IMG/VR virus record: IMGVR_UViG_2681813146_000002
DNA: 47,946 nucleotides
Direction: 5' to 3' (one strand)
DNA from: a virus
Lineage: Duplodnaviria; Heunggongvirae; Uroviricota; Caudoviricetes
Part shown: in pieces, positions 13,279-33,691 of the stretch
Position numbering within the stretch: the first letter of the stretch is position 1
Layout: the number at the start of each line of letters is the position of its first letter
Program-made: the position numbers and the translations under genes
Notes under the pieces: model-generated
The model's input: the letters and a program-made list of their open reading frames with translations, nothing else
Told to the model about the DNA's origin: nothing
The model's database searches: none

Positions 13279-13325
13279 ATGATTGTGGGTGTCTGGTTGG
13301 AAAATGACCAGATATGGAAACAAAA

Positions 13326-13349: not shown

Positions 13350-13446
13350 TCTTGCGACATCCACGGAAAACCAACAACCAATTAACCATGGGCGCCTCGA
13401 CAACTCCCATTATACGTTGGTTTTCCGTGGACGCAAGAGCGAACAT

Positions 13447-16447: not shown

Positions 16448-16450
16448 GCT

Positions 16451-16568
16451 CATAGAATTATATAATTATAGATTTATATAAAAAAGCGCTTTACGGGTGG
16501 GAAAAAATTTCCTAAGGTTATACCCGAAACCGAGCGATACCCGCCCTGGTTAAACCGGAGATAACCCG
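16451..16568 (+). promoter_or_regulatory. Conserved promoter/operator/leader cassette, copy A
   Basis: AT-rich palindrome, then TTTACG-N17-TAAGGT, then leader CCGAAACCGAGCGATACCCGCCCTGGTTAAACCGGAGATAACCCG before the ATG. Near-identical to copies at 25843 and 33034. Confidence 0.55.
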
Positions 16569-16949
16569 ATGAGCATGATTAAAATCCGCAAAGACGCTTT
16601 CCTTAAAATTCAAACTATCCTGGCTGGTTCTGTTGGCGTGATTTGCCGTTCTTCTTCAAGCCGCATCGATGACGGCTACGATGATGAGTATCGTGTGTCC
16701 TCGTGCGACGAGGCTTTAACCTGGCTGAAGGAGAATCAGGAACGTGCCCAGGTATATCTGGAAACAGAGAACGGCAATCAGATGTTGCGTATTAGCGGTC
16801 GTTATGGATTTGAAACTACATTCATGGCCTATTTTAATCAGGCTTACTTTGACAAGGAGTTGGCCTGGTACACTGATCGCATGAGCAAAAGCGAGCCAGC
16901 CCCGATTACACCGCCGAACAATAAACCATTTTTATTCCTCGTTAAGTAA
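16569..16949 (+). CDS. Hypothetical protein, cassette-driven accessory gene
   Basis: 126-aa ORF immediately after cassette copy A. Confidence 0.45.
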   Translation: MSMIKIRKDAFLKIQTILAGSVGVICRSSSSRIDDGYDDEYRVSSCDEALTWLKENQERAQVYLETENGNQMLRISGRYGFETTFMAYFNQAYFDKELAWYTDRMSKSEPAPITPPNNKPFLFLVK

Positions 16950-17012
16950 ACACAATGCGCAAAGTGTCATTTTGACACTTTGCGAGTGTTAATATTGTGC
17001 GAGGAGGGTGCT

Positions 17013-17285
17013 ATGACGGGTTATGAATTGAAATTATGGCGTCGTGGGATGAACTGGACGCAGGAGCGAGCCGCCGAAGAATTTGGGATATCGTTGGCTA
17101 CATATAAGCGATATGAGAAGGGGGAGCCGCCGAGGGTCATTGAGATGGCCATTCGCGTTCTGTCGTTTGACGATATGGTTAAGGATCTTTCACACCTTGA
17201 TAAAGATGCGATTCTGTTAAGGCTGCAAACCCTTGTATGGGAAAAGGTTAAAGTGTCGTCAGAATTGGAACAAGGGATCAAATGA
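17013..17285 (+). CDS. XRE-family HTH protein
   Basis: HTH WTQERAAEEFGISLATYKRYE. Start ATG 17013 after GAGGAGG. Confidence 0.5.
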   Translation: MTGYELKLWRRGMNWTQERAAEEFGISLATYKRYEKGEPPRVIEMAIRVLSFDDMVKDLSHLDKDAILLRLQTLVWEKVKVSSELEQGIK

Positions 17286-17336
17286 TCCTTTACGGATCGT
17301 TTTATGGTGGTGTAATGTAAGCGCCAGAAAGACAAA

Positions 17337-17360
17337 AACCGCCTTGCCGGGCGGTTTTCA
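17337..17360 (+). terminator. Rho-independent terminator
   Basis: AACCGCCTTGCCGGGCGGTTTT hairpin with a T-run. Confidence 0.55.
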
Positions 17361-17920
17361 GTCTGAAATTTAAATCTTGCTTGGTAGGCTGGATTTAAAA
17401 AGACACCTCTTGATTGGGGCGGCTTTCTTGCGTCTAAAGATAATCAAATCTTTTTGCGCCTGCAACCCCTTTTTTACTGGTGCCTGTTTCAGACTCACGC
17501 TCGCGTCGTTGTCTTTGCCACTTCGTTGGGTTCGGTGTTTTTGGGCGAAGTGGCGCGCGGGTATGCGTACAAGGGGAAAGTGTGCTGACGCAAGCCAGGA
17601 ACAGCGATCTAAACTAAGTCGAGTCTGAGAAAGGCAGGAGTGCGACAACTCGCCTGTGCTCTATGAGCAGAAGAAGGTATATCAGACGACCAATGGCATG
17701 ATTGTGGGCCACAGGGCGCACACGGCGGCGAAGCATTGGAAACGATGTGGAGCTATCTGGTGGCATGAGTTCCGGTACTCGATCTCGAGCTTTTTTTGAT
17801 GCTTTTGAGAAGGGGCCGGAACTCCGGTAAAGGGCACCCTGTATGGGGGGAGGGGGGGTTGTGTCTTAAGGAAGATCTAATACGATATTGCTTTACCCTT
17901 ATATCTAAAAGGAGATTTCT

Positions 17921-18556
17921 ATGGGGATGCTGGTGGCGTTTATTATTAGCCTGATTTTGTGTTTCTTCGTAGTTCGTGGCGCATATCGGAAACAATGTGC
18001 CTCGTCTTCTGGTGGTAAGTTCAAAGCTGTTTTAGTGAGTGGCTTTCTCGGGATTGCAACTTTTGTAGTTGTTAATACTCTTGCGGCTGTGACCTTGATC
18101 CCAGAAGACTCCAACACTGCGGCTACTACCGGAGCTGCTTTTGATGGTGTGACCGTAGATAAGTTTAAGAGGTTATATAATGATGACCTTGAAGGCATCG
18201 CTACATCAGGAAAAGCCACCTCCCCTATAAGAATTAAGTCAGTTAAACAAGGTAACAACACCGTTGAATTTGCCATCAATTCATCTGTTAACGGTCGAGC
18301 TAGAGTTGATAAGGATGGGAAGATTTCAGAGTTATTATGGCGAGTATCTAAGCCTAGCTCTGATTCCTTGCTTTCTATGGCCGTAGCTGTTGAAGTCTTG
18401 GATGCATCAAGTGATAGAGACACAGTGATCGCGCAGTTAGAGCAGATTGTTAAATCTGATACGCAGAAAGCTGAGTTTAAGACTAAGAGAGGCGAGTATT
18501 ACGTTTCTCGTGACAAATCAGGGCACGTGTCGCTACTGATTACACCGAAATATTAA
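17921..18556 (+). CDS. Membrane-anchored protein, candidate superinfection-exclusion or moron product
   Basis: 211 aa with two N-terminal hydrophobic helices and a Ser/Thr-rich soluble domain. Flanked by terminators. Confidence 0.4.
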   Translation: MGMLVAFIISLILCFFVVRGAYRKQCASSSGGKFKAVLVSGFLGIATFVVVNTLAAVTLIPEDSNTAATTGAAFDGVTVDKFKRLYNDDLEGIATSGKATSPIRIKSVKQGNNTVEFAINSSVNGRARVDKDGKISELLWRVSKPSSDSLLSMAVAVEVLDASSDRDTVIAQLEQIVKSDTQKAEFKTKRGEYYVSRDKSGHVSLLITPKY

Positions 18557-18566
18557 GAATTGAAGA

Positions 18567-18594
18567 AGCGCCCAAATCGGGCGCTTTGTTTTAT
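18567..18594. terminator. Bidirectional terminator between convergent genes
   Basis: AGCGCCCAAATCGGGCGCT hairpin with flanking T/A runs. Confidence 0.55.
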
Positions 18595-19733
18595 GGTTTT
18601 GCACCTGCGGCCAGTTTATCCGCAGATATCTTTATCAGTTCCTGTAGTGTCCTGGCTGGTAGGTTTGCATCCAGTACGCTGAGTATGCTGTTGTGATCTG
18701 CCTGGTCGACTACTTTGCCTGTCGGTGGTAGTAGCTTGAGCTGAGGATTCAGGTTTTCGTCAAAGCTGATCAGTGCTCTGGCGTTTCTGAGCAGATCAAG
18801 AAGTAAGGCTGATATCACATTTTCCTGAGTCATTGCTGGCAGATTTAGCGCCGCTTTGGTTTTCCCTGTTGCCTTGTCAAACTCCTTGATTAGTTTCTTC
18901 CTGTAGTTCGGTTCCGTTAATAGCCGATTATGCTCTGTTGCCGCGCGGATAATCGTTTTTTCCTGGTACAGTCGTTTAGCCAGATCACGCTCGTACTGTG
19001 TTTTTAACACGCTGCTGATAGCGTTAAAGGCTTCAATGTAGGCCAGCTTGATATCTTTCACGCCTGGACCGTCGATACTCTCCATGAGCAAGGTAAATCC
19101 GTCTTTTGTCATGCGATAGATTGTTATTTCGCGGTCGCTTCCTTCCAACGGTCGTTGCTCTTTAAAGAAATGACGCGCCGCAGCTGTGCGAGGAATGCGT
19201 AACGCATCGATGGCCATAACGATGGAATTGTTTGTGGTGCTGAATGCTTGGGCAACATCGGCTGAGGTTGTGAGTGGCTCGTTATTGCACACCTTAATGT
19301 AAAACATCGGTTTGGCGTTGAGCGTATCGACAACCTCACGAGCATTGTTTGGCGAGACGGTTACGGTCGCGGCCGTTTGCGCGTTCTGGTTGAAGTAGCA
19401 GTCTTCCAGCCGTTCGAATACATCCCACGCCTGATCGGTTTCGAGCATTTTAGCGTGACGTGCAGCCCCGCGTTCGGTCCAGAGAATTAGGGAGCGGGCA
19501 TTTTTACCAACTAACCCGATTGTTTCGGGTCTGTTCTTGAACTCGCGTAATTCGTTTTTTTCAATTTTAAAGTAATGCTTTCCGGCTACGAATCGCGTCG
19601 TGTTGTTCAGAAAGTTATCAGAAATGTTTTTGATTTTTGTTCCGTATAACTGCGCCAGAAGTTCACTAGTGATAACGGGGATCTGGTTATGCAGGATAGG
19701 CTGTAGGGTGTTAACGGTCGGAAGCGTTTTCAT
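18591..19733 (-). CDS. Antirepressor, Rha-family N-terminal domain with KilAC-like C-terminal region
   Basis: 380 aa. N-terminal region resembles phage regulatory protein Rha by recollection. Confidence 0.55.
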   Translation of the reverse strand: MKTLPTVNTLQPILHNQIPVITSELLAQLYGTKIKNISDNFLNNTTRFVAGKHYFKIEKNELREFKNRPETIGLVGKNARSLILWTERGAARHAKMLETDQAWDVFERLEDCYFNQNAQTAATVTVSPNNAREVVDTLNAKPMFYIKVCNNEPLTTSADVAQAFSTTNNSIVMAIDALRIPRTAAARHFFKEQRPLEGSDREITIYRMTKDGFTLLMESIDGPGVKDIKLAYIEAFNAISSVLKTQYERDLAKRLYQEKTIIRAATEHNRLLTEPNYRKKLIKEFDKATGKTKAALNLPAMTQENVISALLLDLLRNARALISFDENLNPQLKLLPPTGKVVDQADHNSILSVLDANLPARTLQELIKISADKLAAGAKP

Positions 19734-19921
19734 TTTGCACCTCCCATAACTACTTTGGTTACGAGGGAGATTTTTGCGTCAGAAACAGCGTTATCGTTGC
19801 TGGCGATGCGCATAGCTTCGCGCTCGATGATTTCAGCCAGGCGGAATTTATCGGCGTATGAGGCTTTCTTGAGAAGGATCTTTACGAGGTTGACGTAATA
19901 GTCATGGGGTAGGTTTGTCAT
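19730..19921 (-). CDS. Small protein upstream of and coupled to the antirepressor
   Basis: Start taken at the internal ATG after GGAG; the longer ORF extends to 19957. Stop overlaps the antirepressor start. Confidence 0.35.
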   Translation of the reverse strand: MTNLPHDYYVNLVKILLKKASYADKFRLAEIIEREAMRIASNDNAVSDAKISLVTKVVMGGAK

Positions 19922-20215
19922 TGTGATATCTCCAGTATATGGAACTATCACCGCCATTCGAGGCTAATCAAATGGTGGTGAGCCGTACAGGGTTAGCCTT
20001 ACCGGACACAATGACGAACCGGCGCGGATTTCTCCGCCCCTGTACGACCCACCATAATTTGGGCGTAACAGTGCTCTACGCATAAAAAAACCGCTAACGC
20101 GGTATGCGCCATCGTGTTATTCAGGAGGCTAATCCCGGCCGTAGATTTTGCTACGGCTCGGAAAGTGTCCACCAATGGCGCATTTATGTCAATACGGCGG
20201 GATTTTAACAGAGAC

Positions 20216-20232
20216 AACCACATAGTGTGGGT
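20216..20232. promoter_or_regulatory. Operator-like site AACCAC-ATAGT-GTGGGT upstream of the antirepressor operon
   Basis: Matches the AACCAC-N5-GTGGTT family with one mismatch. Confidence 0.4.
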
Positions 20233-20674
20233 TTATTGGTAGGCAGAAACAAAAAAACCGCCCTATTGAGGACGGTTCTTTCGTGCTGATCGGATTCGCG
20301 GTCCTTTCAGCATTACGTTGTTGTATAAACAACCACGCAAGCACAAGCAGCAAGTTAATTTTACCCAAAAGGTAATAATAGTCCACTATTATGCTTCATA
20401 AAATTGTGGTTCTTGTTGTGCCTGCAAACTCACAGATTGTGGGTAGGTTACTGATTTTGTGAAAATAAACGAGTTTTTTCGTTTAATTTCTTTCCTATAA
20501 CTAATCTTAAAATAATCGTAAAATACCTGTGGACCTTCCCGCCGATTCGCACCCGGGCACCGACTTTAGGGGAGGATTCTCCGTTGCCGTACATGCAAGC
20601 ACAAGCAGCCGTGCTTGCTCTCGCGTTGTTTTCGTCGGTGGGGATGCCGTGAAACGGCCTGTAAGGGCCATACA

Positions 20675-20797
20675 ATGAAAAAATACTGTATGTGTATTTT
20701 TATCGTTGTTACTGGAGCTTTGTTTACGCCACATGGGGAGGGTTGGAAGATTACTGATAACGCTCTGAATGTGACGATAAACATTAGCAGCAAGTAG
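20675..20797 (+). CDS. Small hydrophobic peptide (40 aa), candidate membrane toxin or moron peptide
   Basis: MKKYCMCIFIVVTGALFTPHGEGWKITDNALNVTINISSK after an AAGGG ribosome-binding site, followed at once by a strong terminator. No Hok motif. Confidence 0.3.
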   Translation: MKKYCMCIFIVVTGALFTPHGEGWKITDNALNVTINISSK

Positions 20798-20802
20798 CGA
20801 TT

Positions 20803-20826
20803 AGGCCCCTTCGGGGGCCTTTTTTA
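20803..20826 (+). terminator. Rho-independent terminator
   Basis: AGGCCCCTTCGGGGGCCT hairpin followed by TTTTTT. Confidence 0.65.
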
Positions 20827-21047
20827 TGGTTGAATTTAAACGCTGGAGCGCATTAAACCTTTCAGAACTGCTTCACGTACCCATTCTGGCCTGGTAGATA
20901 GCAGGGCAAATAAGCAACCAGCTTGCAGCCGTTTGAGGTCGGTTAGACGAGTTTTCAGTAACCGTGTATATTGTTGCTCGGACATAACAAATTCCCCTTG
21001 TTGTGTCGCGACGGCCAACAGTTGGCGCTGGAGGCCGTCACCTTCTC

Positions 21048-21296
21048 TTACTTCTGGTTGTATTGAGCCTTGAGTAACTCAAAAGATTTTGTCAGCACTT
21101 CTTTCAATGACATATCCATTGAGCTGGCGAACGTTTTGTACTCGCGTTTAAATTCAGGGTCGACGTTAAACGCCATTTGTGCCCCACCTGATTTGGTTCT
21201 GGTCGGCGTTTCAGTCGGGTCGAAAACCTGCGGTTGTTCGATTGATGGCGGTACGCCTTTGCTGTTCTTTTTCGGTGGTTTTGATGGTGCGGCCAT
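21048..21296 (-). CDS. Centromere-binding partition protein, ParG-like (ribbon-helix-helix)
   Basis: 82 aa with a disordered basic N-terminus and a C-terminal RHH-like segment. Immediately downstream of the ParA-like gene. Confidence 0.5.
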   Translation of the reverse strand: MAAPSKPPKKNSKGVPPSIEQPQVFDPTETPTRTKSGGAQMAFNVDPEFKREYKTFASSMDMSLKEVLTKSFELLKAQYNQK

Positions 21297-21339
21297 GTGT
21301 ATCCCCTTTTATATAAATCTATAAAACTATAATTATATA

Positions 21340-21993
21340 TTACGCGGCAGTAGTCAGAGCCTCAAGCTGATTGATAATCCCCTGGATAACATCGTCTGCC
21401 TTTTTGCGTGGCGCAACGTATGAGCACTCAATAAGGCTTAAGCCCTTATCCTGAGCTTTGCTCAGAGCTGGCTTGTGGGGAATGTACTTATCGACAACAA
21501 AGTATGGCGTATTAGCCAGGTACTCTTGGGCTTCAATATAGTCAGCTTCGTTTTCAGCCGCGCCGGAAAACACCATGCAAATTTTCTTGATTGGTACACC
21601 CTTTTTAACGATGCCGTGAGCTGTGTTAACGGTGGTTTCCAGGTCATCGGTAGAGAATCTGGTTGGCAAAATAACCATATCCAGAAATTCAGAGAGCTTC
21701 GGTACTGATTCAGATGCGTAGGCACCGCCATCGACGATAACCAGGTCGTATACTTCTGATTCGATGATTTTCTGGACTTGTGATGGTGTGCCGCACGGCT
21801 GCGCCGCGATTGCTGGTTCGATATTGTTGGCCATTCTGCGTTGTACCCAACGCGTTACCGTTCCGTTAAGCACATCCATATCGATCAGGCATACATTCCA
21901 GCCAGCCTTTGCATAAGCAACTGCTAAAGCACGGGCAATTGTTGATTTGGTTACGCCGCCTTTTCCGTTGAAAATACCTACAGAGATAGTCAT
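21340..21993 (-). CDS. parA: Partition ATPase, ParA/ParF-like
   Basis: Deviant Walker A GKGGVTKST near the N-terminus. Start taken at MTISV; the longer ORF extends to 22008. Confidence 0.7.
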   Translation of the reverse strand: MTISVGIFNGKGGVTKSTIARALAVAYAKAGWNVCLIDMDVLNGTVTRWVQRRMANNIEPAIAAQPCGTPSQVQKIIESEVYDLVIVDGGAYASESVPKLSEFLDMVILPTRFSTDDLETTVNTAHGIVKKGVPIKKICMVFSGAAENEADYIEAQEYLANTPYFVVDKYIPHKPALSKAQDKGLSLIECSYVAPRKKADDVIQGIINQLEALTTAA

Positions 21994-22020
21994 TTGTCGA
22001 GACTCCATGTGTTTGGTTAT

Positions 22021-22118
22021 ATAATTCTATAAATCTATATTTATAGAACGAGGTAAGCATAACCAACTTTTTGGCGGATGAAAAGCGTTTTATATAATTA
22101 TATAAATCTATAATCATA
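22021..22118. repeat. AT-rich palindromic repeat units upstream of the ParA-like gene (candidate centromere/operator)
   Basis: Repeated TATAATTCTATAAATCTATATTTATAGA and TATATAATTATATAAATCTATAATCATATA units. A related unit lies at about 21303..21332 upstream of the ParG-like gene. Confidence 0.5.
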
Positions 22119-22143
22119 TAAGCGGGCGTTAGCCCGCTTGCAG

Positions 22144-22518
22144 TCAGAGGTCAGCTATCGTTGATATCAGTTGATTTGCTAGCTGTCGCTGTTTACGTGA
22201 GAGGGTTAGAGCTGCTTCTGAGCGGTCGCTAAGAGGGGTATTCTCATCGAGAATCATGAGGCATACAGAAATGATAGCTCTGTTATATGCCATCAATGAC
22301 TGGCACAGCTTTGATACAGAAGGCACATCGTATTGTAAGGCTGTTTTGAGGCAGGCTTTTTGCTCGTAAGCAAGATGAAGGGTAGATGATATCCAGTCGA
22401 TATCTTTCTCATTATCAATGATTTGGCATAACATACACTCAATCGCTATGTTCAACGCTTGGATTTCGATTCCAGCAGTGATCAGAGTTTCGTTTTTATT
22501 GGCTGTATGTAATTCCAT
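22144..22518 (-). CDS. Hypothetical protein between the repressor gene and the partition genes
   Basis: 124-aa ORF. No recognisable motif. Confidence 0.35.
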   Translation of the reverse strand: MELHTANKNETLITAGIEIQALNIAIECMLCQIIDNEKDIDWISSTLHLAYEQKACLKTALQYDVPSVSKLCQSLMAYNRAIISVCLMILDENTPLSDRSEAALTLSRKQRQLANQLISTIADL

Positions 22519-22610
22519 GCGTAGCCTCTTTTATACTTTCACATGTTGTCAAAACCACAAAATGTGGTTTTTTTGAGCGTAGAAATGCACGGCTTTCGCC
22601 GTGCTGTGTA

Positions 22611-23267
22611 TCATAACCAGTTGACAACACTAACTACGCGGCCCAGAACTTTATAACGCTTAAATTCCTCGTTATTCAGATGCTTAGTGTTCATTTCAGC
22701 ATCCCTTTCGGTTGACAGCATAACAGCATTGTCACCCGGTATGACTCTACAGTGCCTCAAAACAACCAGGCCATTTCTGTCTTCAAGGGCATAGATCCCC
22801 TCATGAATCTCTGTATCGTCTGTATCAATCAGGACTTGGGAGCCAGGGGATATTGTTGGTGACATTAACTCATCGTTGCTCTGGAGAACTGACAGAGACG
22901 ATGGGTTGATGTTCTTGCTTCGTAGAATCTCCTGTTCTATCGCCAGCACTGGCTTTTCTCCGGCGTGCGATGCTATGTCATTTTTTATAGCTACAAGCCC
23001 AGGAATAACAGGAGCGTTAGTATTCTGGGGTGGGAACGGGTTATCTGTTAAGCACGCGATATAAGGCGCTGATGCTTTCAGGGCGTGCGCGATTTTCTTG
23101 ATGGCAGGTATAGATGGTTGTCTTAATCCGGCCTCATAGTTCTGCAAGGTGCTTAAGCCTATTCCAGTGACTTGCTGGAGATCTCCGGCAGTCATGCCGG
23201 ATTGTTTCCGTAGAGTCTGAATGCGCAGACCTATTTCTTTCTTGATGTTCTCGTCGTTGCTTTTCAT
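22611..23267 (-). CDS. Prophage repressor, CI-like (XRE HTH plus S24 LexA-type C-terminal domain)
   Basis: N-terminal HTH IGLRIQTLRKQSGMTAGDLQQVTGIGLSTLQNYE. C-terminal S24-like region. Divergent from a Cro-like gene with palindromes in between. Confidence 0.65.
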   Translation of the reverse strand: MKSNDENIKKEIGLRIQTLRKQSGMTAGDLQQVTGIGLSTLQNYEAGLRQPSIPAIKKIAHALKASAPYIACLTDNPFPPQNTNAPVIPGLVAIKNDIASHAGEKPVLAIEQEILRSKNINPSSLSVLQSNDELMSPTISPGSQVLIDTDDTEIHEGIYALEDRNGLVVLRHCRVIPGDNAVMLSTERDAEMNTKHLNNEEFKRYKVLGRVVSVVNWL

Positions 23268-23299
23268 GTCTCATCAATCGTGAATGGTGGGTTATTTAT

Positions 23300-23425
23300 A
23301 CATTACCACATTTAGTGGTTTTCACATGGTAAGACGAGAGGTGGACCACAAATAGAAGGTTATTTTTTGTTTTGCCCATTGAAAAACTCACGATATGTGG
23401 TTTTAATACCACATATCGTGGTTTT
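23300..23425. promoter_or_regulatory. Divergent immunity promoter/operator region
   Basis: Operator-like sites 23304..23320 and 23407..23423, plus a perfect 12-bp inverted repeat CACGATATGTGG/CCACATATCGTG at 23389..23420. A further site lies at 22553..22569. Confidence 0.55.
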
Positions 23426-23441
23426 AACTGGAGTTCGTTAA

Positions 23442-23936
23442 ATGACCTTTCAGGAGTGGGTTGACGAAAATGGAGGCCAAATTGGTGTTGCCAGAAAGTT
23501 TGGCTTTACGTCATCACTGATTGGTGCCTGGTATCGCTTCGAGAGATTCCCTCGTGCGGATAACCTGACGCTGCTGGTGGCGTATTCGGAAGGCCGGATT
23601 AACGTCCAGCAATGGGCGGCAGATTTTGCCGAACGTCAGCGCCAGCGTAGCGATGGCACATCGGTTCGGCAGAACAAGATCAAAGGGAATCTCCCTGTTA
23701 ACTGCTTATCAAGGCTGAAAGCGGTTTTCTCTGAGTTGGGGATGCCTGCGGAGCGTTGCAATCTACGCGGTCCGCGATTCATTGCTCGCTGGAAACACTC
23801 ACACGTAACCGTTTCAGAGGTTCGTGATGCGATTACCGTGCTGGAGCTTAAGAATAAAGATTCCAGCGATATCGAGCTGATTCATAAGGAGATTAGCAAC
23901 GCCCGGCGTTCAGCACTTGGGAGGCTTGAGGAATGA
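23442..23936 (+). CDS. Cro-like regulator (YdaS / DUF1019-like HTH)
   Basis: N-terminus FQEWVDENGGQIGVARKFGFTSSLIGAWY resembles YdaS-type Cro proteins. Divergent from the repressor gene. Confidence 0.5.
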   Translation: MTFQEWVDENGGQIGVARKFGFTSSLIGAWYRFERFPRADNLTLLVAYSEGRINVQQWAADFAERQRQRSDGTSVRQNKIKGNLPVNCLSRLKAVFSELGMPAERCNLRGPRFIARWKHSHVTVSEVRDAITVLELKNKDSSDIELIHKEISNARRSALGRLEE

Positions 23937-25411: not shown

Positions 25412-25414
25412 ACA

Positions 25415-25792
25415 GTGAGACGCGATCTGGATAGCTTGTTTGAGCTATGGGCGCTGTGGGTGCGCAATGGCTGCAACGCCCGTAGCGGTTTCGCGTCGAT
25501 GTTAGAAATGATGATGGTTACGCGCTGCCAGTTTACCGGAGGGGGCGGCGCACCAAATGACTCACTGGAAACCAGTATCGAGGGAGCGGTGACGGCCCTC
25601 ACGGTAGTTGATGAGACTGCGGCGCTGGTTGTCCGAATTGAATACGGGGCGTGGGAGATTCGGGGCCTCGACATAAATGCACCGCATATTGATAAAGCCC
25701 ACGCCCTTTCTCTTAGTCTCAGACAGTATCGCCGGAAGCTGGCAAAAGCCAGGGCGTATGTTGTCGACTATTTGAAAAAGCGAAGAGAGTAA
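25415..25792 (+). CDS. Hypothetical protein, possibly an antiterminator-like regulator
   Basis: 125-aa ORF. Weak recollection-based resemblance only. Confidence 0.3.
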   Translation: MRRDLDSLFELWALWVRNGCNARSGFASMLEMMMVTRCQFTGGGGAPNDSLETSIEGAVTALTVVDETAALVVRIEYGAWEIRGLDINAPHIDKAHALSLSLRQYRRKLAKARAYVVDYLKKRRE

Positions 25793-25842
25793 AAGTGTCA
25801 TTTTGAGCTTTTTGATGGTGTGTAGACATCGGGAACATCGAA

Positions 25843-25960
25843 AATCTATAAATATATAATTATATATTTATATAAAAAGTGCTTTACAGGTGGGAAAAAA
25901 TTTCCTAAGGTTATACCCGAAACCGAGCGATACCCGCCCTGGTTAAACCGGAGAAATCTG
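25843..25960 (+). promoter_or_regulatory. Conserved promoter/operator/leader cassette, copy B
   Basis: Same AT-rich palindrome, TTTACA-N17-TAAGGT and leader as copy A, ending at the ATG of the next gene. Confidence 0.55.
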
Positions 25961-27028
25961 ATGAATAAACAAGTAATTATTTCTGACTGGATCAACAACC
26001 CTAACAGCCTGTTAAGCACTGATACTGGCTACCTATTACGCCATGTTAATGGTCGTATGGTCAAAAGCGATGAGCACGAAACCTTTTTCTTTGTTGAAGA
26101 CGATGGGCGCATCTATGAGGATGGTTACTCTTATGAAGCCCAAACTGGTTGTATCCCTGCGGAGCTGGTGGACGTAACAGAAGATCTGCGCAAAGCATGG
26201 CTTGAACAGCAGCAGCGCGGAGATGATTACGTAAACACCTATCAGGAACGCCAGAACGCGCGTCTTGCCCGATATATTGCTCGTGCAGAAAAAGCCAGAA
26301 AAGAAGGTGCGGTAGCGCATAAGCGAGCGCATGACCTGTTGGATGTGATCCCGTTAGGCCAGCCGATTTTAGTTGACCATTATAGCGCGAAAGGCCATCG
26401 CCGCCGTTTGTCTAAAGCTGATGCGTTATTCAGAAAAGCGTTTGTTGAATGCGAAAGTAAAGCATCACACTACGAGAGCAAAGCCGCAGGTGTTGGTCGT
26501 AATGGAATTTCGTCTGATGATCCTGATGCGCTATTTAAGTTGCTTCGTAAGCTGCAAGGCTGCATGAAGTCACACGTCAAAATGAAGGCCGCAAATAAGG
26601 CCATTCGCAAATACAAAAAAGACCATTTACAGCAGCTTTCTGCATTAATCGATCTCAGGTTTACAGAAAGCGAAGCCAAAGAGTTACTGGCCGGAGATTT
26701 CTGTGGGCGCATCGGATTCCCTTCATACGCACTGAGCAACAATAACGCCGAAATCAAACGACTACAGAGCCGTATTAAGGAGCTTGAATCGGTCAAGTCT
26801 GTAACAGGAGCACAGCGCGAAGAATACGACGGCTTTTCTATGGAGATAGATCCAGAGGATAACCGCATCCTGTTTTATTTCCCTGGCAAACCAGAGGCAA
26901 ACATTCGTTCGCTGCTTAAATCACGCGCCTTTAAGTGGAGTCCAACCCGTAATGCATGGGTTCGCAAGATTACTCCAAACGCTCTGGCTGATGCCCGATA
27001 TCTGAAAGAATCGCTATTGAAAGCCTGA
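25961..27028 (+). CDS. Hypothetical protein, possibly DUF3560-containing
   Basis: 355 aa with motif GQPILVDHYSAKGHRRR. Cassette-driven. Confidence 0.4.
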   Translation: MNKQVIISDWINNPNSLLSTDTGYLLRHVNGRMVKSDEHETFFFVEDDGRIYEDGYSYEAQTGCIPAELVDVTEDLRKAWLEQQQRGDDYVNTYQERQNARLARYIARAEKARKEGAVAHKRAHDLLDVIPLGQPILVDHYSAKGHRRRLSKADALFRKAFVECESKASHYESKAAGVGRNGISSDDPDALFKLLRKLQGCMKSHVKMKAANKAIRKYKKDHLQQLSALIDLRFTESEAKELLAGDFCGRIGFPSYALSNNNAEIKRLQSRIKELESVKSVTGAQREEYDGFSMEIDPEDNRILFYFPGKPEANIRSLLKSRAFKWSPTRNAWVRKITPNALADARYLKESLLKA

Positions 27029-27105
27029 CAGTAAGCCTACGGCGGGATGTCTCCTGCCGTATATAGAATTATATATTTATATAAATGTATAAGGACGCCT
27101 CGACA

Positions 27106-27387
27106 ATGAAACGCAAAATTATTAACCCCCAAGATGTGATTAATTTCCTGACCGATCACCCATGTTCAAAAGTGGACGTAATCGCGGAGCACATTGGTGT
27201 GTCGCAGAACTCTATGCGTTGCAGACTGAGAAGCATGGTTGCCGAAGGACAGATAACAACCAGGAAAATAAATGGTTGCCTGTACTACTCCGCTAAACCG
27301 GAATTGCCATTTGGCATGAATCCTAACTCCATGTTGTTTAACACCTTATTAGCCAAAGTTAAGCCGTTGAGAGGGGCTGTGGCATGA
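27106..27387 (+). CDS. Small winged-helix-like DNA-binding protein
   Basis: Start taken at MKRKIINPQ after AAGGA; the longer ORF starts 27085. Preceded by an AT-rich palindrome at about 27061..27090. Confidence 0.4.
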   Translation: MKRKIINPQDVINFLTDHPCSKVDVIAEHIGVSQNSMRCRLRSMVAEGQITTRKINGCLYYSAKPELPFGMNPNSMLFNTLLAKVKPLRGAVA

Positions 27388-27749
27388 GCATCAAAACCCA
27401 TACCGGAATAATCATCACCATTGATGGTGAGAAAAGAGTGAAGTTGCGCGAAACGCCGACAACCTGGTGTGTTGGTCCGAAAGAAACATATCGCAAGGAA
27501 GATGGCCGTCGTTGTGGGGCACCACTTTCCCGCCGTCGCCTCCTTTTGAGCACGATAAAACCTATCGGGCAGGTTGAGCAACCAACGACTCCGGTAACGA
27601 AGATTTCAGACAAGAGTCTGGCAAACCTGATCGCCGATGCGGACAAGGTGCTGGAGCGGAACACCCCCGTTGCAGATGAGGAATGGTGGCAGGATTTCCG
27701 AGCCGCAATGCTAGAGCTTCAGGAACGTCGTCGGGAGGAGTTGAAGTGA
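27384..27749 (+). CDS. Hypothetical protein
   Basis: 121-aa ORF. Confidence 0.35.
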   Translation: MSIKTHTGIIITIDGEKRVKLRETPTTWCVGPKETYRKEDGRRCGAPLSRRRLLLSTIKPIGQVEQPTTPVTKISDKSLANLIADADKVLERNTPVADEEWWQDFRAAMLELQERRREELK

Positions 27750-27937
27750 GCAAGAAAAATGCCGGATGGGTCAGGCCAATGAAGGCGAATAAACATCATT
27801 ATTTTAATGAAGGTGAAGTAACCAGCATTTGCGGCCGTTGGATGTATTTTGGTGATTACCGTGAGCCAGACACTTTTGAGAGTCCTGATGATTGCGTGTC
27901 TTGTCGCCGGAAATTGAACAAGGTGGCTTCTAAATGA
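27746..27937 (+). CDS. Small Cys-containing protein
   Basis: GTG start overlapping the upstream stop, after GGAGG. Cys pairs CGRW and CVSC. Confidence 0.3.
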   Translation: MSKKNAGWVRPMKANKHHYFNEGEVTSICGRWMYFGDYREPDTFESPDDCVSCRRKLNKVASK

Positions 27938-28551
27938 AAGAACGTGGTGTTGTTTTTAATGACGATATGGTTAGGGCCATCCTCGAAGGAAGGAAGACGC
28001 AGACTCGCCGACCTGTAAAAAATGTCAGGGCCGATAACTGCCTGGTTATCCGTAAACCGACAAAGAAACGCAATGGTGTCTATACCCACGTTATGGATGC
28101 ACCGGAACATGGTTTATGCCCGTTCGGTAACGTTGGTGATCGCATATGGGTCCGTGAAACATTCAACGCTTTTTGGCTGGATAACGATGTCATTCAGGAA
28201 ATCAAAGATGGTGTCTCTCTGGCTTCTGAACTGTGTGATTACAAGGCTGATTACTCAGATAGTAGCAAGCCAGCTGAGGGCTGGACCCCGTCGATTCACA
28301 TGCCACGTTGGGCCAGCCGCATTCTGTTGGAAATAACCGACGTGCGTGTGGAACGGCTGCATGACATGAGCGAGGCAGATGCTAAAGCTGAAGGCGCATC
28401 TCCGGCGACGTACAAAATTACACCGCCGGAAGCTGTTTATCGTGTTGGCTTTGGTGATATCTGGCGCGGTATTTACGGGCAAGAGAACTGGCTATCTAAC
28501 CCGTGGGTATGGGTAATTGAGTTTAAGCGTATTCAGGAGGGCAACCAGTGA
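27934..28551 (+). CDS. ASCH-domain-like protein
   Basis: N-terminal MVRAILEGRKTQTRR resembles the ASCH signature as I recall it from YqfB. Confidence 0.4.
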   Translation: MKERGVVFNDDMVRAILEGRKTQTRRPVKNVRADNCLVIRKPTKKRNGVYTHVMDAPEHGLCPFGNVGDRIWVRETFNAFWLDNDVIQEIKDGVSLASELCDYKADYSDSSKPAEGWTPSIHMPRWASRILLEITDVRVERLHDMSEADAKAEGASPATYKITPPEAVYRVGFGDIWRGIYGQENWLSNPWVWVIEFKRIQEGNQ

Positions 28552-29111
28552 GTAACCAATGGCGACCAGATATTTGCCCTATAACTGGACGTGCATTTTT
28601 CATGTGGATTGAGCATCCGGAATTGGGAAATGTACCGACGTACGGTGGCCCATTAGACAGTTACACCATTCCAACAAAGGACGGTGACGGTGAGTTTTCA
28701 TGTGAGCGTTACGATCATGATTTCGGCGGTTGGGTAGAAAGCGAATGTCTTGGGTTATATCTGATTGATGATAAAGAGCAATGCAGAGTCTACGAACTGG
28801 AGGAACGCGTTAAGGAGCTGGAAGCGCGGGAAATAAAACCAGCCAAAGGTGAAGTTCTTGTCGTTGTATCTGGTTTTACTGGTTGCGGAAAAAGCGCCAT
28901 TGCCGGGGAAATAGAAATTGCGATGAAGGCTATTGGTGTACCGGTTCAGTGGACTAATGGCGATGCAGAAAAGCGCATGACTGGTGCTGACTGGCTGACA
29001 GCAATTGAGATGTACAAACCAACTGTGCGCATCGTGGAAGTTAATGTGCCACGCGTCGCTGGCATTCGCATCAAAGGAGACGCAGGAGAGCAAAACGATG
29101 AAAAACCGTAA
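28548..29111 (+). CDS. Hypothetical protein
   Basis: 187-aa ORF. Confidence 0.35.
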   Translation: MSNQWRPDICPITGRAFFMWIEHPELGNVPTYGGPLDSYTIPTKDGDGEFSCERYDHDFGGWVESECLGLYLIDDKEQCRVYELEERVKELEAREIKPAKGEVLVVVSGFTGCGKSAIAGEIEIAMKAIGVPVQWTNGDAEKRMTGADWLTAIEMYKPTVRIVEVNVPRVAGIRIKGDAGEQNDEKP

Positions 29112-29286
29112 AGCAAAGATTCTGTTAGTTCGTAGAAACGCTCCTGGCGTCTGGCAGTGGGTGAGACTCAGCAACCGACGGATGGGGTTGATGAAATATT
29201 ACGGGATGATGGATTGTGGTTTTTGCAAAAAGCCCAGCGCGGCGCAAAACCGCTGGAAAAACCACTTGCGCACTAAAGGAGAGTGA
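29098..29286 (+). CDS. Small basic protein
   Basis: Start ATG 29098 after GGAGAG. Overlaps the upstream stop. Confidence 0.25.
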   Translation: MKNRKAKILLVRRNAPGVWQWVRLSNRRMGLMKYYGMMDCGFCKKPSAAQNRWKNHLRTKGE

Positions 29287-29497
29287 TATGTCTATTGCCG
29301 CAAGTTACACCATGCATCTCTATTGTGACTGCCGCCAGTGTACGGAAGGTGTATATCCAGTGCCAGACTTCGGTGAGTATATCGGTACGTCATGGTCTGG
29401 TTGTGCAAAAGAGGCCCGTAAAGACGGGTGGCGAATAAGCAAAGACAAAACACGTGCTTTTGCGCCCGGGCATAAAATTTTGAGGATTAACAAATGA
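29287..29497 (+). CDS. Small Cys-rich protein
   Basis: ATG 29287 after AAGGAGAG. Cys cluster CDCRQC. Confidence 0.3.
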
Positions 29498-29907
29498 CAA
29501 CTTTTACCGACGACGACAAAGGACTTATTAAAGAAATCAGAGAGCGAATCGGCAGCCTGGACGTGCGAGACAATATTGAGCGCCGGGCTTATGAAATAGC
29601 GTTAGCCTCGCTGGAAGCAGAACCGATAGCGTGGGAATGCGGCGAAAACATAATCCTGTTTAATCCTGACACAGTTGAAGCATACGCAAAACGTGCGGAG
29701 ATAACACCTAAACCTCTATTCGCCGCCCCGCCAGTGCCGGTAGTGCCGGATGATGGTCGCGAAAAGTTCGAAGCACTTGTCAGGTTTCATGCGGGTGATA
29801 AAAACCATGAAACATTATTGCTTCGTGCCAACGAAGGTATGAATTACCAGGACCCGAATGTTGATCTGGCGTGGATATTCTGGAAGTCCAGTCGTGAGCA
29901 TATATAA
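29494..29907 (+). CDS. Hypothetical protein
   Basis: 137-aa ORF. Confidence 0.35.
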   Translation: MTTFTDDDKGLIKEIRERIGSLDVRDNIERRAYEIALASLEAEPIAWECGENIILFNPDTVEAYAKRAEITPKPLFAAPPVPVVPDDGREKFEALVRFHAGDKNHETLLLRANEGMNYQDPNVDLAWIFWKSSREHI

Positions 29908-30291
29908 GCTGTAGTGAGAAGCCATGCGATTACGAGCAGTATTCAGATATTCAGAGCGGGTAATGAGGCACATACAACCGAAAACATGGCAGAAATTGGA
30001 TTCTGTGGGAGTTAAGTTGGAGAAGATTACTCAACTTAAGCAGTGGCATATCGGCGAATATTATGGAAGTCCTGGCCGGGATGTTCGTTTGGTAAAAAGT
30101 TGAGTATTGTTTTTTTATTGATCAATTAACCACGATTTGAAGGTTTTTTATGGGAAAACCTTGTTTTAGGTGGTAACTGGGTGTAGTGTTTCATTTAACG
30201 TAGTAAAACTGCGTTAAGCGATTACCGCGTAATTTGTTGCTTTATGAAGCCCTGCCTTTTTCGGCGGGGCTTTTTTTTAACGAGGATTTCA

Positions 30292-30687
30292 ATGTCAGCA
30301 GAACCAATTTCCGGTACGGCCGTTGCTGCTGGTGGCCTGATGGGTGCCAGCGTTTTTGGTATTGCAACTGGTATTGATTACGGCGTTGTATTCGGGGCAT
30401 TTGCTGGCGCTGTTTTCTATGTTGCTACAGCGGTGAATATTAGCCGTCTCAAGCTGATTGGCTATTTCTTTACATCGTTCATTGTTGGAGTGATTGGAGC
30501 GCCGTTAGTTGGCTCATTTCTTGCCAAATGGACCAGCTACAACGATCGTCCTCTGGATGCGCTTGGTGCGGTTATTGTGGCTGCATTGACAATTAAAATC
30601 CTCACGTTCGTAAACAGCCAGGATCTCGGTAGCATCTTTGGAATGCTTTCCCGCTTACGTGGAGGGGGTTCAAATGGTAAGCAGTGA
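30292..30687 (+). CDS. Holin-like membrane protein
   Basis: 132 aa with several hydrophobic helices. Start ATG 30292 after GAGGA. First gene of the lysis cassette, after a terminator-like hairpin. Confidence 0.5.
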   Translation: MSAEPISGTAVAAGGLMGASVFGIATGIDYGVVFGAFAGAVFYVATAVNISRLKLIGYFFTSFIVGVIGAPLVGSFLAKWTSYNDRPLDALGAVIVAALTIKILTFVNSQDLGSIFGMLSRLRGGGSNGKQ

Positions 30688-30970
30688 CCCGTCAGCACTG
30701 ATTAATGCGGTGCTTTGCACAGTAATAGTAATGGCGCTGATGTTTTATCGACGGAAAGACTCAAGGCATCGTCCATTTGTTTCCTTTCTGGCTTATATCT
30801 ACGTCATTGTATACGCCAATGTTCCCTTCCGTTATGTGTTTGGTCTTTATCAAGAATCCCATTGGCTGGTGGTTATTGGAAATCTGATTATCTGCATCGT
30901 TGTTCTGTATTTCAGGGGCAATCTGGCGCGGATAGTTGACGCATTAGGATTTAATCATGACCAAAGATGA
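30674..30970 (+). CDS. Second lysis-cassette membrane protein (holin/antiholin-like)
   Basis: 98 aa, hydrophobic. Start ATG 30674 after GGAGGGGG. Confidence 0.45.
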   Translation: MVSSDPSALINAVLCTVIVMALMFYRRKDSRHRPFVSFLAYIYVIVYANVPFRYVFGLYQESHWLVVIGNLIICIVVLYFRGNLARIVDALGFNHDQR

Positions 30971-31499
30971 GATTTTTAACAGCATTCTTGGAAAAGAGGG
31001 CGGCTATGTGGATCACCCTGACGACAAGGGAGGCCCAACAAAGTGGGGCATTACTCAGAACACTGCCCGTGCTCATGGATACCGTGGCGATATGCGAGAT
31101 TTAACCCGCGAACAGGCACTGGAAATCCTTGAGGCTGATTACTGGTACGGACCACGCTTTGATCAGGTGGCCGCATTATCCTCTGATATTGCCGCAGAGC
31201 TGTGTGACACGGGGGTGAACATGGGGCCAACAGTGGCGTCAAAAATGCTTCAACGCTGGCTGAATGTGTTCAACCTGCGCGGGAAGCTGTATCCCGATTT
31301 GGATGCAGACGGACGAATCGGTCCACGTACCATTAATGCGCTGCGTGCTTATCTTGGGAATCGGGGAAAAGACGGCGAACGTGTGATGCTGACGTCGCTG
31401 AACTGTACGCAGGGCGAACGCTATCTGGAGTTGGCGGAGAAGCGCGAGGCTAATGAGTCGTTTGTCTACGGCTGGATGAAAGAGCGAGTGGTGGTATGA
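30957..31499 (+). CDS. Endolysin, glycoside hydrolase family 108-like with C-terminal peptidoglycan-binding region
   Basis: N-terminal EGGYVDHPDDKGGPTKWGIT is GH108-like by recollection. Confidence 0.65.
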   Translation: MTKDEIFNSILGKEGGYVDHPDDKGGPTKWGITQNTARAHGYRGDMRDLTREQALEILEADYWYGPRFDQVAALSSDIAAELCDTGVNMGPTVASKMLQRWLNVFNLRGKLYPDLDADGRIGPRTINALRAYLGNRGKDGERVMLTSLNCTQGERYLELAEKREANESFVYGWMKERVVV

Positions 31500-31774
31500 C
31501 TGGTTTGAAGGCCGTTTTGTCATTTATTGGCACAATTGTATTGGTTGCATTTGGCGCGTTTGGTTTTGGTCGTATGAAGGGGCGAGAAAAGGCCGAAGAT
31601 GAAGCTGAAAAGCAGCGCATTAATGAGAATGCAGCCGCCGTAAAAGCCACTGCGGAGCGGCGTATAGAAGTGACAAAAGAGGTGGGGAATGTACAGCAGA
31701 GTGTTAACCATATGGCTGATGACGATGTTGATCGCGAGCTGCGGGAGTCGTGGAAGCGTCCCGGTGGTGGTTGA
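31496..31774 (+). CDS. Inner-membrane spanin (Rz-like)
   Basis: N-terminal transmembrane helix then a charged coiled-coil region. Follows the endolysin. Confidence 0.55.
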   Translation: MTGLKAVLSFIGTIVLVAFGAFGFGRMKGREKAEDEAEKQRINENAAAVKATAERRIEVTKEVGNVQQSVNHMADDDVDRELRESWKRPGGG

Positions 31775-31898
31775 TACCGCCTGTGATTGGGTAAAGCCCA
31801 TCTACCTGACTGATCACGACATCGATGTTATGGACCGCCAGACAAAGAAAGATATTCTGGCTCATAACATGGCATGGGAAATCAACTGCCGAAAGTAA
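31719..31898 (+). CDS. Outer-membrane lipoprotein spanin (Rz1-like)
   Basis: Lipobox LIASC in MTMLIASCGS. Overlaps the Rz-like gene out of frame. Confidence 0.5.
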   Translation: MTMLIASCGSRGSVPVVVDTACDWVKPIYLTDHDIDVMDRQTKKDILAHNMAWEINCRK

Positions 31899-32067
31899 TA
31901 TATATTTCTATAATTATATAAATATATAGTTACAACATTCTATGCGCTTTTCTCATGGGCGCACGCATCAACCATGTTTGTCTGATATGCCGCCGCGCCC
32001 AAAAATCCTGAATTTATTGGCTGGGATTTTCGTGCGCGGCGCCACACCAGACAAACAAATCAAATAT

Positions 32068-32143
32068 GGCCCCTTAGCTCAGTGGTTAGAGCAGGCGACT
32101 CATAATCGCACGGTCATCGGTTCAAATCCGGTAGGGGCCACCA
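32068..32143 (+). tRNA. tRNA with anticodon CAT (Met, or Ile2 if lysidine-modified), CCA encoded
   Basis: Manual cloverleaf: acceptor GGCCCCT/AGGGGCC, D-arm GCTC..GAGC, anticodon loop CTCATAA, T-arm with TTCAAAT loop, discriminator A plus CCA. Confidence 0.8.
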
Positions 32144-32450
32144 ATTCACTCTCACACATAAAGATAAGCGCGGTGGAGTTACTTCTTCGTGCTCATCTTT
32201 ATGCGTGCCTGGTGCGCATTTCGGGCGAACGTGGGGCTAAGTTACAGGCAGGGCCTGTTATCCGCAAAGGGGTAAAAGCTGGAGCGGCACGGAACTGTAG
32301 CCGTGTTACCAAAACAGCGTTGTCGGGCGATATCCGGCACACAACAGGCAAGGGCATTAATCAGTCTGGTTAGTGCCCTTTTCGTTGTGTTTGCTGTAGA
32401 GCTGGCCAGCGTTATGACTGCCGGAGATAAGCGCCGGAGACACAACTAAC

Positions 32451-33038
32451 ATGGAGGCAATTGCATTGTTTAATCTGATTTATGCAGATCCCCCCTGGGA
32501 ATACAAAGACAAGTGTAAGGATGGGAATCGTGGCGCTGGTTTTAAGTATCCAACGATGAAAGCTGAGGATATTGCTCGTATTCCTGTCTGGCAGCTTGCT
32601 AATCCTGAATCGTGTTTGTTGGCCATGTGGTGGGTTCCGACTCAGCCAGAAGAAGCGTTGCTGGTGGTGAAAGCATGGGGATTCAGGCTGATGACCATGA
32701 AGGGCTTCACATGGAACAAATGTGGTAGCCGACAACCAGATAAGCTGGTGATGGGGATGGGGCATATGACTCGTGCAAACAGTGAAGATTGCTTGTTTGC
32801 GGTAAAAGGCAAACTGCCGACCCGCCTTGATGCGGGGATCATTCAGTCGTTTACATCGCCTCGTCTGGAGCATTCTCGGAAGCCTGATGTGGTTCGTGAC
32901 AAGCTGGTAAGGCTGTTAGGTGATGTTCCCCGTATTGAGCTGTTTGCTCGCGGTGATTTACCTGATGGCTGGCATGGCTGGGGCAACCAGTGCAATGGAG
33001 GTATCCAGTTGCATGATGCTCTCTGGCAAGTGGCATAG
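32451..33038 (+). CDS. MT-A70-family N6-adenine DNA methyltransferase
   Basis: DPPW catalytic motif in LIYADPPWEY. Size 195 aa. Confidence 0.65.
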   Translation: MEAIALFNLIYADPPWEYKDKCKDGNRGAGFKYPTMKAEDIARIPVWQLANPESCLLAMWWVPTQPEEALLVVKAWGFRLMTMKGFTWNKCGSRQPDKLVMGMGHMTRANSEDCLFAVKGKLPTRLDAGIIQSFTSPRLEHSRKPDVVRDKLVRLLGDVPRIELFARGDLPDGWHGWGNQCNGGIQLHDALWQVA

Positions 33039-33150
33039 AATTATATAATTATATATTTATATAAAAAGCGCTTTACAGGTGGGAAAAAATTTCCTATGGT
33101 TATACCCGAAACCGAGCGATACCCGCCCTGGTTAAACCGGAGATAACCCG
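33034..33150 (+). promoter_or_regulatory. Conserved promoter/operator/leader cassette, copy C
   Basis: Near-identical to copies A and B (TATGGT in place of TAAGGT). Begins at the methyltransferase stop codon. Confidence 0.55.
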
Positions 33151-33617: not shown

Positions 33618-33691
33618 ACCGTAACGATAACGAACAACGAGCCTCGGCAATTGCCGGGGCTTTTTTACATCCAGACAAAGGAGAACATGGG

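Follow-up and report, generated by a model that had tools for sequence, protein, structure and literature searches.

The virus record IMGVR_UViG_2681813146_000002, a stretch of 47,946 nucleotides (nt) that is called the window here, carries three near-identical promoter cassettes of about 118 bp, which probably place three fixed and conserved operons under one control logic. In the dual-operator model that we propose, each of these paralogous promoters would be controlled by a ParG-like partition protein acting on an array of AT-rich boxes and by a small Aca-like helix-turn-helix (HTH) protein acting on a palindrome at the −10 element. Bases 1-95 of the window are repeated identically at 47852-47946, which means that the window holds one full circular replicon of 47,851 bp. 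Its gene content was derived from Pfam and Rfam scans and from the annotation of a RefSeq plasmid that is 98% identical; there are genes for an IncFII-type RepA, a HigB/HigA-like toxin-antitoxin pair, a small Walker ParA followed by an 82-amino-acid (aa) protein, a CI-like XRE/S24 repressor, and an ORF6N/Rha antirepressor behind C4 and isrK RNAs, as well as a ryfA-like RNA, lysis genes, a tRNA, and P2-like head and tail genes. With RepA, par, CI, lysis, and P2-like structural genes on one circle, the replicon is therefore a phage-plasmid.

Each cassette consists of three layers: an AT-box array, a sigma70 promoter with a palindrome over its −10 element, and a leader of about 43 nt with a Shine-Dalgarno (SD) sequence. 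The three copies lie within 1-2 nt of where the original prediction had placed them:

16450..16568, + strand: cassette A, with the AT-box array at 16450-16481, −35 TTTACG at 16490-16495, the 17-bp palindrome at 16498-16514, −10 TAAGGT at 16513-16518, the leader core at 16526-16561 (SD GGAG at 16557-16560), and the ATG at 16569.
25844..25960, + strand: cassette B, with the AT-box array at 25844-25875, −35 TTTACA at 25883-25888, the palindrome at 25891-25907, −10 TAAGGT at 25906-25911, the leader core at 25919-25954, and the ATG at 25961.
33033..33150, + strand: cassette C, with the AT-box array at 33033-33064 (its first box overlaps the stop codon of the MT-A70 methyltransferase gene), −35 TTTACA at 33072-33077, the palindrome at 33080-33096, −10 TATGGT at 33095-33100, the leader core at 33108-33143, and the ATG at 33151.

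Global pairwise alignment over about 121 nt, a check that had been proposed with the prediction, gave identities of 90.2% for A and B, 96.7% for A and C, and 91.8% for B and C, while the 81 nt that run from a point just before the −35 element to GGAGA give 97.5% for each pair. According to MAFFT, the similarity begins at the 5′ edge of the AT-rich array and ends at the ATG. It is not confined to low-complexity AT sequence: the GC-rich 19-nt leader segment CGCCCTGGTTAAACCGGAG is present exactly three times, and shuffled sequences give an expectation of 0, even when 3 mismatches are allowed. The sigma70-like promoter that had been described as TTTACA-N17-TAAGGT is indeed there, but not with these exact letters in every copy, since the −35 element of copy A reads TTTACG and the −10 element of copy C reads TATGGT, so that the consensus becomes TTTAC(A/G)-N17-TA(A/T)GGT. 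Similarly, the AT-rich element is real, but what had been taken for a palindrome consists of four tandem 8-bp boxes instead. Between SD and ATG, copy B has the spacer AAATCTG, as opposed to ATAACCCG in the other copies.

The AT box has the self-complementary consensus TTATATAA. A register-aware scan of the window detected exactly eight arrays of such boxes where 0.02 would be expected; they are spread over 17 kb, and all of them are located in the maintenance and early region. The arrays outside the cassettes, and the partition genes among which some of them lie, are:

21048..21296, − strand: gene of the ParG-like small protein (82 aa), downstream of ParA; candidate binder of the arrays.
21309..21340, no strand: AT-box array between parA and the 82-aa ParG-like gene.
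21340..21993, − strand: ParA ATPase of the small Walker type (217 aa), with CbiA/ParA/MipZ matches.
22017-22048 and 22090-22121, no strand: two AT-box arrays bracketing the predicted parA promoter TTTTCA-N17-TATGCT (− strand).
27061..27092, no strand: AT-box array between the DUF3560 gene and the gene of a MarR-like 93-aa protein, abutting the SD of the latter.
31898..31945, no strand: AT-box array of 5-6 boxes, upstream of the tRNA gene.

With the 82-aa gene beginning 44 nt after parA, the arrangement is that of a type Ib partition locus, in which a small Walker ParA is followed by a small protein. Short repeats of fixed period are found at the parA promoter as well: it lies between two four-box arrays, and a further array precedes the 82-aa gene. 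A precedent for such an arrangement is found in ParG of TP228, which binds tetramer boxes with 4-bp AT-rich spacers at a regular 8-bp period in both centromere and operator (PMC3413123).

Comparison with distant relatives of the replicon, located by means of a 125-aa protein that is 57-58% identical in them, points to the 82-aa protein as the binder of the arrays. These relatives keep the layout of RepA, toxin-antitoxin pair, par, cI, and early operon, and they also keep the array-promoter-array arrangement at parA as well as arrays dispersed among the early genes, but the box sequences are different, being of the GATATA type in L051 and of the TTAATTAA type in L052. Three such relatives (L049, L051, and L052) each have an 8-bp AT-box sequence of their own around the parA promoter and among the early genes; L052 and L049 moreover have arrays that overlap promoter elements and are followed by hairpins in the 5′ untranslated region (5′UTR) or by terminators. 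The identity of the box tracks the ParG-like protein rather than a 124-aa protein or CI:

Klebsiella-type L027 versus the window (same boxes): ParG-like protein 91%, 124-aa protein 50%, CI 64%.
Distant relatives versus the window (different boxes): ParG-like protein 33-42%, 124-aa protein 19-23%, CI 28-30%.

The presumed ribbon-strand residues differ as well (QMAFNV, QLLFRL, PLNFNV, and PLHFSV). In an AlphaFold2 (AF2) model of the 82-aa monomer, residues 1-40 are disordered and QMAFNV precedes two helices, 47-59 and 62-81, which is compatible with a ribbon-helix-helix monomer. Because of the co-variation, the compatible model, and the TP228 precedent, we assign the arrays to the 82-aa protein, which is likely to bind them; the arrays would perhaps double as centromeres. 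The part that the original prediction had envisaged for the ParG-like protein is thus supported by the co-variation with box type. The longest array lies about 120 nt upstream of the tRNA gene (window 31898-32140), so that the tRNA may belong to the same regulon.

Since the arrays are AT-rich and lie immediately upstream of the −35 element in four promoters, they might also be generic UP elements or sites for H-NS, IHF, or Fis instead of operators of a plasmid-encoded protein. We consider this very unlikely, as generic sites would not be expected to keep a strict 8-bp register with a palindromic box, to occur as exactly eight arrays restricted to the maintenance and early region, to abut a ribosome-binding site in some cases without any promoter in between, or to change in box sequence between lineages while their layout is kept.

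The second layer, the palindrome, occupies the promoter spacer as GGAAA-N3-TTTCC and extends to the 17-bp TAGGAAA-N3-TTTCCTA in the Salmonella, Klebsiella, and Citrobacter types. The −10 element begins with the last two bases of the palindrome. Four perfect copies are present in the window: three in the cassettes and one in a fourth promoter, which has neither an AT-box array nor the shared leader and which precedes the gene of a small HTH protein:

14884..14912, + strand: fourth promoter, TTGCCA-N17-TACCAT, with GGAAAAGATTTCC at 14894-14906 in the same spacer register.
14939..15226, + strand: gene of the Aca-like HTH protein (95 aa); candidate binder of the palindrome.

There, TAGGAAAAGATTTCCTA at 14892-14908 abuts and overlaps the −10 element TACCAT of the Aca-like gene's own promoter, and this palindrome is kept in the Salmonella (L002) and Citrobacter (L029) types. 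When the 95-aa protein was compared with the PDB using phmmer, it matched the HTH domain of AcrIF24 with E-values of 1.4e-5 to 2.5e-5 over 64-66 residues and Aca3 with an E-value of 0.016; it also matches the phrog_7950 repressor (E 3e-4), and there was no match in Pfam. A search of IMG/VR for wider relatives of the gene returned only the same family. Protein and palindrome are both present in the E. coli, Salmonella, and Citrobacter types, whereas the distant relatives lack both and carry a different gene in this place. In AcrIF24, the HTH domain acts through an inverted repeat to repress the protein's own acr promoter (PMC9638941). The repeats bound by Aca proteins typically overlap the −35 and −10 elements, Aca11 controls two promoters through near-identical repeats, and Aca2 additionally binds the RNA of its 5′UTR (PMC12658196). 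Taken together, we find it somewhat more probable that the 95-aa Aca-like protein binds the palindrome than that it does not. The CI-like protein, which the reporter fusions proposed with the prediction had named as well, is rejected as the regulator of the cassettes because its operators differ: they read ACCAC-N6-GTGGT, sit around cI, and are absent from the cassettes.

The genes that follow the copies encode the same proteins in all four host types, namely a 126-aa protein, a 355-aa DUF3560 protein, and a protein of about 89 aa. As predicted, these proteins are unrelated, belonging to separate PHROG families (8090, 6744, and 6143) and sharing no Pfam domain. Their description as accessory genes does not hold, however, as they are core and syntenic in the members from E. 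coli, Salmonella, Klebsiella, and Citrobacter. Nor does the leader precede varied cargo elsewhere: genomes, IMG/VR, and metagenomes yielded 65 copies in about 50 loci, and the gene that follows always belongs to one of these three orthologous families. The notion of a portable cassette with accessory cargo therefore fails. Breakpoints of homology between family genomes, which lie at about 17.9, 18.6, 20.2, 27.8-29.9, and 33.9-34.9 kb, do not coincide with the cassettes either. A mobile promoter cassette, similar to the promoter-early stem-loop repeats of T4-type phages and recombining so as to shuffle or capture cargo, could be suspected from near-identical 117-bp direct repeats on one replicon and from an IS26-captured fragment with part of cassette A in an unrelated plasmid. 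With no more than three gene families ever following the cassette, with downstream genes that are core rather than variable, and with breakpoints elsewhere, this explanation is extremely improbable. The captured fragment (L026, NZ_CP037908.1, 1444-2623) is flanked by IS26, contains higBA and the operator/−35 part of cassette A, and resides in a conjugative cfr plasmid. Recombination between cassettes was also considered as the origin of the 32-kb plasmid pCREC-544_3 and was ruled out, the deletion lying elsewhere; plasmids of 27-28 kb with partial matches contain an IS26-captured higBA fragment and are not informative.

When the E. coli type is compared with the Salmonella type, identity amounts to 87-90% for the 81-nt cassette and to 56-74% for the first 264-378 nt of the genes next to it, and the two types have non-homologous terminators upstream of copy A. 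Within one genome, on the other hand, the copies are 95-100% alike, with values of 100/100/100% for the three Salmonella copies. The same polymorphisms (TAAGGT/TATGGT, GCGC/GTGC, and TATAG/TATAT) are found at all three loci in varying combinations, and in E. coli ATCC 25922 (L053), locus C has the SD-ATG spacer of the B type. The simplest account of these patterns is purifying selection together with gene conversion among three loci that stay in place; only the cassette sequence itself would then move. For the concerted evolution of regulatory DNA, the family provides a clear-cut example from nature. In plasmid pATCC25922_4 of ATCC 25922, copy A (about 3030-3110) has a mutated palindrome and −10 element (GGGACAATATTTCCTAGTGT).

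The third layer is the leader, which contains a core of 36 nt with the sequence GAAACCGAGCGATA-NN-CGCCCTGGTTAAACCGGAGA. If transcription starts about 7 nt after the −10 element, as inferred, the 5′UTR is about 43 nt long. In about 60 copies, variation of the core across lineages is almost limited to the adjacent NN (CC, GT, GC, AC, or CT), the only further change being a singleton A-to-G, with two other singletons just 5′ of the core. The SD-ATG spacer 3′ of the core and the 6-8 nt immediately 5′ of it do vary. Folding calculations predict a weak minimum-free-energy structure (z −1.2 to −2.4), in which AACCG pairs with UGGUU and GCG with CGC, placing the variable NN in a loop; the predicted stems never vary among the copies. 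Searching Rfam 15 with the leader yielded no match at the gathering threshold and only chance-level matches at E-values above 3. No match was found in E. coli chromosomes, no copies of the leader halves beyond chance elsewhere in the window, and no new leader variants in a metagenome scan anchored on the promoter. An antisense or small-RNA partner was ruled out, as the replicon contains no complementary k-mer of at least 12 nt elsewhere, and no outstanding duplex was predicted with C4, isrK, ryfA, or the tRNA.

A possible, though tentative, interpretation is that the leader core is a new cis-acting element that operates after initiation, that is, an RNA operator. Its reader could be the Aca-like HTH protein, in the way that Aca2 reads its own 5′UTR, or another factor of the phage-plasmid or the host. 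If this were true, only two nucleotides of the hairpin loop would be free to vary, the copies would be kept identical so as to match a single trans-acting reader, and a layer of translational or mRNA-stability control would be added to a regulon of anti-defense or establishment genes. The leader might also lack a function of its own and be an ordinary 5′UTR with a good SD that is carried along by gene-conversion tracts. Such tracts do run through the leader, and the weak fold, the lack of matches in Rfam and E. coli chromosomes, and the lack of a complementary RNA in the replicon agree with this. Conversion, however, accounts for identity within a genome and not for identity between lineages: between clades in which the adjacent coding DNA shares 56-74% identity and the flanking terminator has been exchanged, no more than 2 positions of the core are different, and the sequence directly flanking the core does vary. 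A functionless leader is therefore unlikely in our view. The near-invariant 36-nt leader is a defined and testable target for what may be a new type of post-transcriptional control. In the distant relative L051, a gene-free, GC-rich region of 1.9 kb (12100-13970) without a match in Rfam holds AAACCGAGCG and, after 21 nt, CGCCCTGGT; both halves of the cassette leader are thus there, but a longer insert separates them.

Intrinsic terminators are located downstream of the promoters at 18565, 30246, 33639, and 34513, and their positions are kept in Salmonella. Together with the cassettes, they delimit the following units:

16569..17285, + strand: operon A, with the 126-aa gene (16569-16949) and the gene of a 90-aa XRE-type HTH protein (17013-17285); it possibly extends to 18.6 kb.
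25961..27028, + strand: first gene of operon B, encoding the 355-aa DUF3560 protein, whose C-terminal region matches a primase-annotated PHROG.
30246..30273, + strand: strong intrinsic terminator, bounding operon B about 20 nt before the holin start; position kept in Salmonella.
33151..33617, + strand: operon C, encoding proteins of 89 and 66 aa and closed by the terminator at 33639-33662.
33639..33662, + strand: intrinsic terminator about 540 nt downstream of cassette C; position kept in Salmonella (L002 46187-46206).

Operon B is better read as running from the DUF3560 gene through the ead/Ea22-like accessory genes to an end at 30.25 kb. Between the 126-aa and XRE HTH genes of operon A, there is a perfect inverted repeat (16958-16984) with 12-bp arms (CGCAAAGTGTCA TTT TGACACTTTGCG), which could be an attenuator or an operator.

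The presence of terminators downstream of the promoters would also be in keeping with antitermination, with the cassettes serving as loading sites for a Q-type antiterminator. The candidate would be the 125-aa protein encoded immediately upstream of cassette B, which has a Q-like fold. It would bind between the −35 and −10 elements, engage RNA polymerase paused within the conserved stretch that is transcribed first, and make it read through the downstream terminators, and this would explain why promoter and early leader are conserved together as one unit. Several observations render this scenario quite improbable. The Foldseek E-values on which the fold assignment is based are weak (0.4-1), the E. 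coli-type leader contains no −10-like pause hexamer nAnnnT, and the sole pause candidate, GATAnn (GATAGT in the Salmonella type), varies at its critical last positions. In addition, the half-sites form an inverted repeat, whereas those of the 21Q binding element are direct (PMC6606751), the same palindrome occurs at a promoter of the maintenance region, and the 125-aa protein, including its invariant helix residues, is kept in distant relatives that have neither cassette nor palindrome. A better target for it would be the conserved 140-nt leader and terminator abutting the holin gene (30104-30273), which are kept in Salmonella. For these reasons, the terminators are better read as the ends of three cassette-driven operons. 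The noncoding block of about 140 nt next to the holin gene (window 30104-30294; L002 42290-42515) is highly conserved and holds a CI-operator-like sequence, ACCACGATTTG. As the terminator ends about 20 nt before the holin start and leaves no room for a promoter, the lysis genes seem to depend on read-through.

Our observations support the strict co-regulation of a dispersed regulon that the original prediction had offered besides its portable cassette. In the proposed dual-operator mechanism, the ParG-like protein would bind the four-box arrays just upstream of the −35 element cooperatively, and would do so at the parA promoter too, so that a partition protein would double as a global regulator. 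A dimer of the Aca-like 95-aa protein would bind the 17-bp palindrome over the −10 element, including the one in its own promoter. We infer that the effect of both proteins is repression: in the plasmid-prophage state, the two would hold the three promoters low, whereas upon entry into a naive cell, before the repressors have built up, or upon their titration, the three promoters would fire together. The result would be a synchronous burst, with the same promoter strength and the same translation start region at all three loci. Terminators would restrict the transcripts to short or medium operons, and gene conversion would keep the copies alike.

A number of points weigh against this model. 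The ParG-like assignment is based on gene position, predicted secondary structure, and co-variation; for the 82-aa protein, no match supporting a ParG or ribbon-helix-helix identity was found in Pfam, the PDB, or Foldseek, and BLASTP gave no match between it and a ParG sequence. ParA co-varies with the box type too. One array adjoins the gene of the MarR-like protein, a 93-aa winged-helix protein (phrog_1687, E 3e-31; window 27061-27387), which is another possible binder of the arrays. An array upstream of the −35 element could also activate, or act as an UP element, instead of repressing. With regard to the palindrome, the XRE HTH protein of operon A (17013-17285), which is clade-specific too, could be the binder. 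Finally, the near-invariance of the leader is not accounted for by two repressors.

As to what the regulon does, the Aca-like regulator alone suggests the hypothesis that the regulated operons contain anti-defense or establishment genes. Among solved structures, Acr entries included, the 126-aa, 89-aa, 87-aa, and DUF3560 proteins have no homologue, no known anti-CRISPR or anti-defense gene was identified among the regulated genes, and the literature on DUF3560 proved uninformative. The cassettes expose what may be the control logic of the family, which would make the three operons prime candidates for genes of this kind.

The family is common in E. coli: the cassette is present in 72 of 5,426 complete genomes (1.3%), with a median of three copies each and about 215 copies in all, and the reference strain ATCC 25922 is one of its bearers. 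It was also found in 65 PLSDB plasmids and three Yersinia phage records, and further members of the family occur in Salmonella, Klebsiella, Citrobacter, and phages isolated on Yersinia. A literature search returned no paper describing this phage-plasmid family. The name pSLy3 was considered for it and ruled out, pSLy3 belonging to the SSU5 supergroup. Elsewhere on the replicon (window 19971-20157, − strand, and 20529-20825, + strand), Rfam places a C4 antisense RNA and an isrK-like RNA ahead of the antirepressor genes, as in an immunity-I module of the P1/P22 type, and it also identifies a ryfA-like RNA of full length that may be a type I toxin-antitoxin locus.

Several known systems resemble the one described here. 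Near-identical leader elements behind different promoters of one phage are known from lambda nutL/nutR, HK022 putL/putR, and the lambdoid PR′-Q system, and as in the latter, a 21Q-like protein and downstream terminators are present; in contrast to these, our cassettes have no boxA or boxB, no match in Rfam, and no −10-like pause element, and the predicted fold of the leader is weak. With Aca systems, the replicon shares a 95-aa protein homologous to the AcrIF24 HTH domain and Aca3, an inverted repeat over that protein's own core promoter, and, as for Aca11, the potential of one Aca protein to control more than one promoter through near-identical repeats. Unlike in those systems, three of the four targets lie far from the aca-like gene, and unlike for Aca2, the palindrome is not transcribed, so that no RNA copy of the DNA site would exist.

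The omega protein of pSM19035, a ribbon-helix-helix centromere-binding protein that also represses, binds arrays at three dispersed promoters. Both omega and TP228 ParG are encoded after a small Walker ParA, as is our 82-aa protein, and in TP228, too, short boxes that recur every 8 bp make up the arrays that ParG uses as operator and centromere (PMC3413123). Different from both are the palindromic boxes, the distribution of eight arrays over 17 kb, and the absence of a sequence or fold match to ParG.

The kor system of RK2/RP4 comes close in its logic, in that many dispersed promoters carry operators for a DNA-binding partition protein and for a small HTH dimer. In RK2, seven promoters have the palindromic KorA operator; five of them also have a KorB site, which in four cases lies 32-36 bp away, center to center (PMC2665229); from array center to palindrome center, the distance is about 40 bp at the three cassette promoters. 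There is no sequence homology between the systems, KorB being a ParB-type CTPase, whereas the locus here is of type Ib with an 82-aa protein as the candidate binder of 8-bp box arrays. Also, no identical promoter and leader is common to the RK2 promoters, and the replicon here is a phage-plasmid instead of a conjugative plasmid. In phage P1, the operators of the C1 repressor are dispersed over the genome. Our replicon resembles P1 as a phage-plasmid with many scattered controlled promoters alongside a module of C4 antisense RNA and antirepressor, but here the CI-like repressor has its own operators near cI, and the dispersed sites would belong to other proteins. Judged from sequence, dual control of three operons by a partition protein and an Aca-like repressor would appear to be a variant of the global regulation known from plasmids and phages.

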